Below are positions 26,431 through 27,097 of a DNA stretch of 64,000 nt, in pieces. Positions within the stretch are counted from its first letter, which is position 1. Each line of letters begins with the position of its first letter. The stretch lies in sequence record PP925831.1. One strand, given 5' to 3'. The translations under genes and the position numbers were made by a program. The stretch is from Escherichia phage Pinarejo. The notes beneath the pieces were generated by a model. The model was not told the origin of the DNA and made no database searches. It worked only from the letters and a program-made list of their open reading frames with translations.

Positions 26431-26648
26431 GTAACCTTTAAGCAGTATTCTTCTACATGCTGTTTACGACCTTTCTTATCAATAAAGGTATATTCAACGA
26501 ATGTTCCAATGTAGTCTTTATCTACATCATGCGGACTATTAATTGGACATTTAGTAAGGCAAATGCGTTCCCATTGACGAATAATTACTGCCTTATTCTT
26601 TGGGTCATATGGATGTGGATAATGTATATTCATAATAACGGTTCCCAA
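26421..26648 (-). CDS. Hypothetical protein, 75 aa
   Basis: Track ORF. Confidence 0.45.
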   Translation of the reverse strand: MGTVIMNIHYPHPYDPKNKAVIIRQWERICLTKCPINSPHDVDKDYIGTFVEYTFIDKKGRKQHVEEYCLKVTWL

Positions 26649-27097
26649 TCAACAATCACAATTTCTAATTTAGAGGAATATGTATCTAAAATCCCCTCAA
26701 TAATATCCCAGTTCCCTTTACCTATGCCTGCACCAATCCTAGGCATATAGATTGTAGGTTTAATCAGTTTATTTTCACCAAACTCATTTAATTCTAACAT
26801 ACAATTCATTAAAGCGGAATACTCAAAATTTGGCCCTGGTTGAAATTGAGTATAAAGGTTGAAGCAATACGCTTTATGAGTCCTAAAGTATTTTTCATAG
26901 ACTGAGTAAGAACCGAGTTTAGTTACATCACCCCATTCAGTCTGTAATTTATCAGCTTCCAAAATTTTAGGGAAAGCTTTGGTTAATTGACCCGCTACGC
27001 CTGAACCCATAGTATGAAAACAATTGCATCCATGCGCAATATTTTTACCTTCAGCGAAAAGGGCGACAATATCGCCCTTGATATATTTTACAATCAT
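26630..27097 (-). CDS. Macro-domain-like protein (ADP-ribose binding/processing fold), 155 aa
   Basis: GDIVALFAEGKNIAHGCNCFHTMGSGVAGQL resembles GDIT...IVNAAN...GGGV; later PRIGAGIGKG resembles the P-x-I-G-x-G-I-x-G loop. Confidence 0.55.
   Translation of the reverse strand: MIVKYIKGDIVALFAEGKNIAHGCNCFHTMGSGVAGQLTKAFPKILEADKLQTEWGDVTKLGSYSVYEKYFRTHKAYCFNLYTQFQPGPNFEYSALMNCMLELNEFGENKLIKPTIYMPRIGAGIGKGNWDIIEGILDTYSSKLEIVIVDWEPLL

Follow-up and report, generated by a model that had tools for sequence, protein, structure and literature searches.

In the genome of Escherichia phage Pinarejo (sequence record PP925831.1; "the window" refers here to the whole stretch of 64,000 nucleotides that was analysed), the gene tk.4, also named adfM, encodes a bare macrodomain of the ALC1-like (TARG1 / DarG / SCO6735 / Poa1p) class, which very probably binds and hydrolyses the ADP-ribose added to thymidine by the toxin DarT2, through a water-mediated reaction involving a Gln and an Asn. 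The identity of the protein, its fold and its DarTG2 phenotype are solid, while we infer that Tk.4 itself is a hydrolase and that it uses a Gln-type mechanism. Both the macro motif and the anti-DarTG2 role of tk.4 were already known, from the reference annotation and from a 2025 preprint, respectively. What the present analysis adds is the assignment to a subclass, namely an active site with Gln84 that is unlike that of DarG, a Gln held in common with SCO6735, and a distance from the AdfM protein of phage PhiKZ.

The product of tk.4 aligns with T4 Tk.4 (NP_049723.1, from NC_000866) at 155/155 residues (100% identity), and the T4 records are also matched when this product is used in a tblastn search. 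Overall, tblastn matches to Tk.4 were found in 2750 of the 50,697 phage records searched. The window represents a genome of the T4 type; its 4-kb stretch around tk.4 has matches in 815 phage records and is closest to Escherichia phage ECML-123-2, at 99.9% identity. An original prediction, made from the letters of the window and a list of its open reading frames (ORFs), had placed a macro-domain-like protein of 155 amino acids in a tk-regB accessory stretch. The ORF does exist on the minus strand, with an ATG start (Table 1), and is located between tk and regB, as the flanking genes identified in a Pfam scan encode thymidine kinase, RegB (REGB_T4, 230 bits) and an SLT-domain protein. The immediate neighbours are vs upstream and tk.3 downstream, and the gene occupies the same position in T4.

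Profile searches and structure prediction both identify Tk.4 as a genuine macro-domain protein, with a predicted three-layer alpha/beta/alpha fold. The Pfam Macro profile (PF01661) matches it with 27.7 bits (E 2.9e-6, profile positions 2-113 of 118), above the curated gathering cut-off of 22 bits. When compared to the PDB, a profile of the Tk.4 family matches solved macrodomains at E-values ranging from 9e-20 to 4e-8, including BT1257, the best solved-structure match by sequence (9e-20), TARG1 (3e-16), SCO6735 (2e-15), the DarG protein of Mycobacterium tuberculosis (3e-14) and Poa1p (6e-14). The AlphaFold2 model, computed from an alignment of 94 homologues, has a mean predicted local distance difference test score (pLDDT) of 96.3 and a predicted TM-score of 0.91. 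When this model is searched against the PDB with Foldseek, ranks 1-19 are occupied by TARG1, Poa1p, BT1257 and DarG, all with a probability of 1.00 and with query-normalised TM-scores of 0.69-0.82, the highest of which (up to 0.82) are those of Poa1p entries. Viral and MacroD-type domains first appear at rank 26, with E-values about 1000-fold weaker than those of the top matches. Among the 150 matches with E<=0.001, the top 50 listed are macrodomains or designed enzymes, some of the latter based on macrodomain scaffolds such as TTHA0132 and Af1521.

As the nearest relatives in the PDB, both by sequence and by Foldseek, are members of the ALC1-like class and not MacroD, PARG or viral domains, Tk.4 belongs to this class. 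Structure prediction, which the original prediction had proposed as a check, thus confirms the macro fold put forward there and further specifies its class. The two loop strings quoted in it, GDIVALFAEGKNIAHGCNCFHTMGSGVAGQL (residues 8-38) and PRIGAGIGKG (residues 119-128), are present as written. However, the motif to which they were compared (GDIT...NAAN...GGGV) is of the MacroD type, and this comparison needs to be corrected: the first loop of Tk.4 is of the ALC1-like/TARG1 class and reads HGCNC..MGSGVAG. A Cetobacterium homologue prompted us to ask whether FmTARG1 from Fusobacterium might be a Tk.4-clade protein that has already been characterised, but this candidate was rejected because FmTARG1 was selected by a Lys-type pattern (TK...GxGxD).

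Loss of the glycine-rich loops in homologues had been set beforehand as one of two outcomes that would refute a macro domain, the other being a predicted non-macro fold. Neither is observed, and the loops are kept in our two samples of homologues, which comprise 94 phage/metagenome and 66 bacterial sequences (160 in total). G33, A35, P119, I121, G122 and G124 are invariant among the 94 phage/metagenome homologues. Among the 66 bacterial ones, invariant positions are H22, G23, N25, C26, G33 and A35 in loop 1, and P119, G122, G124, G128 and W130 in loop 2, I121 being replaced by Leu in three sequences. Conservation is not limited to glycines, as Y82 and Q84 are invariant in both samples (94/94 and 66/66), and H22, N25, C26, D49 and Y82 are invariant or nearly so across the phage/metagenome and bacterial homologues.

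The position of Gln84 is central to the subclass assignment. In the AlphaFold2 model, the strand formed by residues 75-84 terminates at this residue, which aligns in the same column as the catalytic lysines K80 of DarG, K84 of TARG1 and K78 of PhiKZ AdfM, and as the essential Gln85 of SCO6735. In addition, N25 is equivalent to N22 of DarG, N23 of PhiKZ AdfM and N27 of SCO6735, G124 is equivalent to G128 of SCO6735, and G126 is found at the position of D125 of TARG1. The equivalence of Gln84 is recovered by hhalign as well as by both MAFFT L-INS-i alignments that were built. The register is further supported by the last MAFFT alignment, since every reference residue that can be checked falls there at its published number (K84 and D125 in the case of the TARG1 sequence used; Poa1p was represented by its N-terminal part only).

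Genetic evidence for an anti-DarT function comes from a HIDEN-SEQ preprint of November 2025, in which tk.4 was the single significant hit of a T4 transposon library on DarTG2-expressing E. coli. A clean tk.4 knockout turned DarTG2-sensitive, and the gene was named adfM, for anti-DarT factor, macrodomain; it is dispensable on plain E. coli K-12 and important only in the presence of DarTG2 (bioRxiv 10.1101/2025.11.20.689424). Among the functions suggested in the original prediction, the reversal of DarT modification is therefore supported by published genetics on this very gene, whereas the processing of NAD-derived signals and the tuning of the phage's own ADP-ribosyltransferases find no support.

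We propose the following scheme. In a DarTG2 host, DarT2 attaches ADP-ribose to thymidines of single-stranded phage DNA, thereby blocking replication. Tk.4, which would be expressed within the tk-regB gene chain, would bind the attached ADP-ribose in the cleft lined by its pair of glycine-rich loops, where it would hydrolyse the ribose-thymine bond, in a water-mediated reaction positioned by Gln84 and Asn25 as in SCO6735. Normal DNA would thus be restored and replication would proceed, with Tk.4 standing in for the missing DarG antitoxin. SCO6735 provides the precedent for such a site. This enzyme works more rapidly than DarG or TARG1 in stripping thymidine of the ADP-ribose added by DarT, and it rescues E. 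coli from DarT toxicity; all activity is lost in the Q85A and Q85E mutants and nearly all of it in N27S, and the mechanism proposed is water-mediated, the Gln positioning the distal ribose (PMC9411070). The importance of the active-site Asn is documented in two studies (PMC9411070 and PMC13309987). By this precedent, a Gln-type site can be active. The idea that Tk.4, having no catalytic Lys, would be an inactive binder was thus rejected, because SCO6735, with the same Gln, needs this residue and outperforms DarG on DarT-modified DNA.

Several points nevertheless weigh against this scheme. First, the catalytic Lys found in DarG is absent from Tk.4, and as a result neither of the known mechanisms (DarG, SCO6735) transfers fully to it. 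Second, SCO6735 and BT1257 constitute a subclass of ALC1-like macrodomains that is defined by a mobile loop five residues longer and carrying Lys89, and in SCO6735 this loop contributes to the activity on DNA (PMC9411070). We looked for such a loop in the alignment and it is missing from Tk.4, since the distance from Gln84 to Tyr93 (9 positions) corresponds to the short-loop length of TARG1 and DarG (9 as well), compared to 14 from Q85 to Y99 in SCO6735. Third, the residue equivalences given above rest on sequence and profile alignments. Fourth, the genetics of tk.4 is preprint evidence, and enzymatic removal is described in that same preprint as what "seems likely" (bioRxiv 10.1101/2025.11.20.689424). 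Finally, catalytically dead SCO6735 still inhibits DarT directly (PMC9411070), and protection by Tk.4 need not, for this reason, be purely hydrolytic.

Tk.4 might indeed protect mainly in a non-catalytic manner, either by binding and inhibiting DarT2 or by shielding ADP-ribosylated sites. Such a role would agree with the lack of the DarG/TARG1 catalytic Lys, and also with the behaviour of dead SCO6735 Q85A, which inhibits DarT in vitro more than dead DarG or dead TARG1 (PMC9411070). However, the Gln and Asn that are catalytic in SCO6735 are invariant in the 160 homologues, including bacterial ones with no DarT detected nearby (single DarT2 query), and this invariance is more readily expected of a conserved enzyme than of a protein that binds a single toxin. 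Moreover, no counterpart of the C-terminal DarT-binding domain of DarG, itself a protein of about 330 amino acids or more, is found in the 155 amino acids of Tk.4. We thus regard protection without catalysis as unlikely and favour hydrolysis of the thymidine-linked ADP-ribose.

The T4 reference annotation of tk.4 reads "phosphatase; Tk.4; contains A1pp phosphatase motif", A1pp being an older name of the macro domain. Tk.4 also matches PHROG 335 (1e-65), which is labelled "phosphatase", and this product name has spread to many phage records of Tk.4 homologues; several other GenBank records name the homologue "macro domain protein" or "Poa1p-like". Because the label originates from Poa1p/A1pp homology and because the phenotype is DarTG2 sensitivity, it is probably misleading on the thousands of phage homologues of Tk.4. 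Taken at face value, it would imply that Tk.4 acts primarily on a small ADP-ribose derivative (such as ADP-ribose-1''-phosphate or O-acetyl-ADP-ribose) and that DarTG2 protection is a side activity. In addition to the labels in T4 RefSeq and PHROG 335, the H-x-C-N-C motif in common with Poa1p, a phosphatase with H23 and S30 mutated in deposited structures, would fit this possibility. So would a survey in which macro domains are common in phages (41% of myoviruses) and most of them were argued to act on soluble ADP-ribose derivatives (PMC9503650). Yet the labels were inherited by homology and not by assay, Poa1p has a Ser instead of a Gln at the position of Q84, and the sole phenotype on record is specific to DarTG2. 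Furthermore, thymidine-linked ADP-ribosylation is reversed by TARG1, DarG and SCO6735, and thus by every ALC1-like enzyme that has been tested to date (PMC9411070). A small molecule as the primary substrate of Tk.4 thus appears highly improbable.

T4 itself encodes ADP-ribosyltransferases (Alt, ModA and ModB), and Tk.4 could be envisaged as erasing the ADP-ribose that these enzymes put in place, or ADP-ribose on RNA, thereby tuning the infection programme. However, the T4 transferases modify arginine and, to our knowledge, no ALC1-like macrodomain has been reported to act on the arginine linkage. SCO6735 and TARG1 have Glu/Asp esters and thymine/uracil as substrates (PMC9411070, PMC13036486). 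With respect to RNA, ADP-ribose is also cleared from uracil by TARG1, DarG and SCO6735 (PMC13036486), so that the class could plausibly act on nucleic acids other than DNA. A role in tuning the phage's own programme is, on the other hand, difficult to reconcile with a gene that plain E. coli K-12 leaves dispensable and that is needed only with DarTG2 (bioRxiv 10.1101/2025.11.20.689424), and we consider it very improbable. There is no direct support, as far as Tk.4 is concerned, for any of these three alternatives to hydrolysis of DarT2-made thymidine ADP-ribose.

The relationships of Tk.4 with other macrodomains were explored with a neighbour-joining sketch based on 154 alignment columns. PhiKZ gp104 groups with the DarG macrodomains in 100/100 bootstrap replicates, Tk.4 being outside, and the Tk.4 family forms a clade of its own in 76/100. 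Lys-type proteins (DarG, gp104 and TARG1) are separated from the Tk.4 family plus SCO6735, BT1257 and Poa1p in 75/100, while the Tk.4 family is sister to SCO6735/BT1257 in only 15/100. Profiles of DarG lead to a similar separation: the NCBIfam DarG model (NF048014) gives Tk.4 30.3 bits for a cut-off of 250, over model positions 2-146 of 338, and the PADLOC DarG model gives 36 bits to Tk.4 and 133 bits to PhiKZ gp104. We thus rejected the possibility that Tk.4 is an orphan DarG, because of its score below the cut-off, the lack of Lys80, of the C-terminal domain and of a darT neighbour (looked for around the bacterial homologues with a single DarT2 query), and its placement outside the DarG clade. 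Orthology between T4 AdfM and PhiKZ AdfM was likewise rejected, on the basis of a BLASTP comparison of Tk.4 with PhiKZ gp104 that aligns 23 residues, of the PADLOC scores and of the tree placement.

Relatives of Tk.4 are widespread in bacteria, with at least 513 loci detected when each bacterial species was represented by one genome. The best 80 of these loci, spread over many phyla, share 33-43% identity with Tk.4. ORF lengths are 137-172 amino acids at 59 of the 67 loci for which the gene was recovered by a simple ORF caller, which is consistent with the bacterial relatives being bare domains. No DarT2-like ORF or six-frame match was detected within 4 kb of the 80 bacterial homologues, using a single P. 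aeruginosa DarT2 query, DarTs being divergent. Similarly, no conserved partner gene was found beside the bacterial homologues, the recurring neighbours being lineage-specific housekeeping genes. As the bacterial relatives are bare-domain sized and have no DarT2 detected nearby with this single query, the T4-type AdfM looks like a recruited stand-alone macrodomain and not like a detached DarG.

A broader proposal, to which we give slightly less than an even chance, is that the T4-type AdfM constitutes a third ALC1-like active-site design, which phages took up from a widespread type of free-standing bacterial macrodomain, and not from a DarG antitoxin, in an event separate from the one that gave PhiKZ its DarG-derived AdfM. 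This design may combine a Gln as in SCO6735, a loop as short as that of DarG/TARG1, the H-G-C-N-C motif of Poa1p and an invariant Asp49 and Tyr82 of its own. If this is true, the name AdfM covers two convergent solutions, and the mechanism and substrates of the T4 type (thymine-DNA, perhaps uracil-RNA or Glu/Asp-protein) may escape prediction from DarG or SCO6735.

The features of tk.4 and of its surroundings are listed in Table 1.

Table 1. Location of tk.4, of its active-site segments and of neighbouring features in the window.
Feature	Position	Strand	Remarks
tk.4 / adfM coding sequence	26630..27097	minus	ATG start, 155 amino acids plus stop; single macro domain
Loop 1, residues 22-38, HGCNCFHTMGSGVAGQL	26984..27034	minus	H22-G23-C24-N25-C26 motif and GxG phosphate-binding turn
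End of central strand, residues 80-84 (NLYTQ)	26846..26860	minus	Gln84 at the catalytic-Lys position
Loop 2, residues 119-130, PRIGAGIGKGNW	26708..26743	minus	second glycine-rich loop (diphosphate/distal ribose)
ATGA overlap, tk.4 start / vs stop	27094..27097	minus	read from sequence and ORF ends; likewise annotated in T4 and ECML-123-2
ATGA overlap, tk.4 stop / annotated tk.3 start	26630..26633	minus	from sequence; annotated 4-nucleotide overlap of coding sequences
Tk.3	26421..26633	minus	downstream of tk.4
GC-rich hairpin	27059..27079		codons 7-14 of tk.4
Vs	27094..27435	minus	upstream of tk.4
Vs.1	27428..27973	minus	181 amino acids
GrcA-like ORF	29261..29623	minus	120 amino acids

The original prediction had also pointed to two secreted proteins next to tk.4, and the upstream products Vs and Vs.1 do have signal-peptide-like N-termini, as judged by eye from their translations. 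Vs, which contains four cysteines, is annotated "valyl-tRNA synthetase modifier" and begins with MTKILVLCIGLISFSALADTS, resembling a Sec signal; such a secretion-like start is odd for a protein that is said to act on a cytoplasmic synthetase. In the HIDEN-SEQ experiments, vs shows the strongest depletion of all T4 genes when the medium is minimal glucose (bioRxiv 10.1101/2025.11.20.689424). Vs.1, still a "hypothetical protein" in T4 RefSeq, carries a transglycosylase SLT domain (Pfam, 25.1 bits for a cut-off of 21.3). On the other side of tk.4, Tk.3 matches Pfam DUF7202 with 131 bits; its start is an upstream TTG in the ORF list (75 amino acids) versus an ATG in GenBank records (70 amino acids). 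Farther away, the GrcA-like ORF corresponds to an autonomous glycyl radical cofactor in the ECML-123-2 annotation.

The hairpin located at the 5' end of tk.4 has 8 pairs in a DNA scan and 9 in an RNA fold, and is moderately stable on the sense strand (-14.8 kcal/mol, z = -2.85). It is annotated as a rho-independent terminator in OL631480, and the sense strand has only four U after it. Although this terminator-like hairpin is real, a functional role for it was not retained, as we found no reason for linking it to function. A promoter scan yielded 15 sites, compared to a mean of 15.6 in shuffled sequence, and thus revealed no excess.

Taken as a whole, the finding mainly confirms the earlier reading of tk.4 as sound, and the residual novelty lies in the subclass assignment and in the predicted enzymology. 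In the scheme that we favour, a lytic phage would carry an orphan "antitoxin" enzyme which erases a DNA modification inflicted by its host. With its Gln-type, short-loop site unlike those of DarG and SCO6735, Tk.4 could further provide a compact model for the cleavage of base-linked ADP-ribose by this macrodomain class.

Comparison with characterised systems helps to place this enzyme. SCO6735 from Streptomyces coelicolor (PDB 5E3B), BT1257 (2FG1) and Tk.4 are all stand-alone proteins of about 150 amino acids found outside DarTG operons, and they have in common the Gln at the catalytic-Lys position, the His-x-Cys-Asn motif and the Gly at the position of SCO6735 G128; Tk.4 retains equivalents of SCO6735 H24, C26, N27, Q85 and G128. 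They differ in that C26 of Tk.4 is an Asp in SCO6735/BT1257 and S32 of Tk.4 corresponds to K34 of SCO6735, and in that the invariant D49 and Y82 are particular to Tk.4. The DarG macrodomain (Thermus aquaticus, 5M3E; M. tuberculosis, 5M3I) has the same fold, class, conserved Asn (N22) and opponent, DarT2, as Tk.4. However, DarG possesses Lys80 and a C-terminal DarT-binding domain and adjoins darT, whereas Tk.4 possesses Gln84 and is a bare domain encoded among phage early genes. Yeast Poa1p (6LFQ), an ADP-ribose-1''-phosphate phosphatase, has the same first-loop motif as Tk.4 (H-x-C-N-C...G-x-G-[IV]-A-x-Q-L), but differs from it by the Ser mentioned above, by a long insertion ahead of loop 2 and by its small-molecule substrate.

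Two phage proteins can also be compared with Tk.4. PhiKZ gp104, which was independently named AdfM, is a DarG2-like macrodomain with N23 and K78 in its active site, and in vitro it clears an oligonucleotide of the ADP-ribose attached by DarT2 (Cell Rep 2026, PMC13309987). Like Tk.4, it is a phage-encoded stand-alone macrodomain countering DarTG2, but it is DarG-like, with Lys78, while Tk.4 is Gln-type and belongs to a different subclass. The name AdfM is thus now carried by two subclasses; the PhiKZ paper (PMC13309987) does not mention T4 or Tk.4, and the T4 preprint contains no cross-reference. Finally, T4 AdfN, a NADAR protein active against DarTG1 (PMC11825919), illustrates the same strategy in the same phage, that is, an orphan antitoxin-like hydrolase undoing DNA ADP-ribosylation by DarT. 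It differs from Tk.4 by its unrelated NADAR fold and by its target, the guanine-linked ADP-ribose made by DarT1, and it handles DarTG1 but gives no protection against DarTG2 (bioRxiv 10.1101/2025.11.20.689424). T4 would thus have a separate eraser for each type of DarT, with AdfN acting on marked guanine and Tk.4/AdfM on marked thymine.

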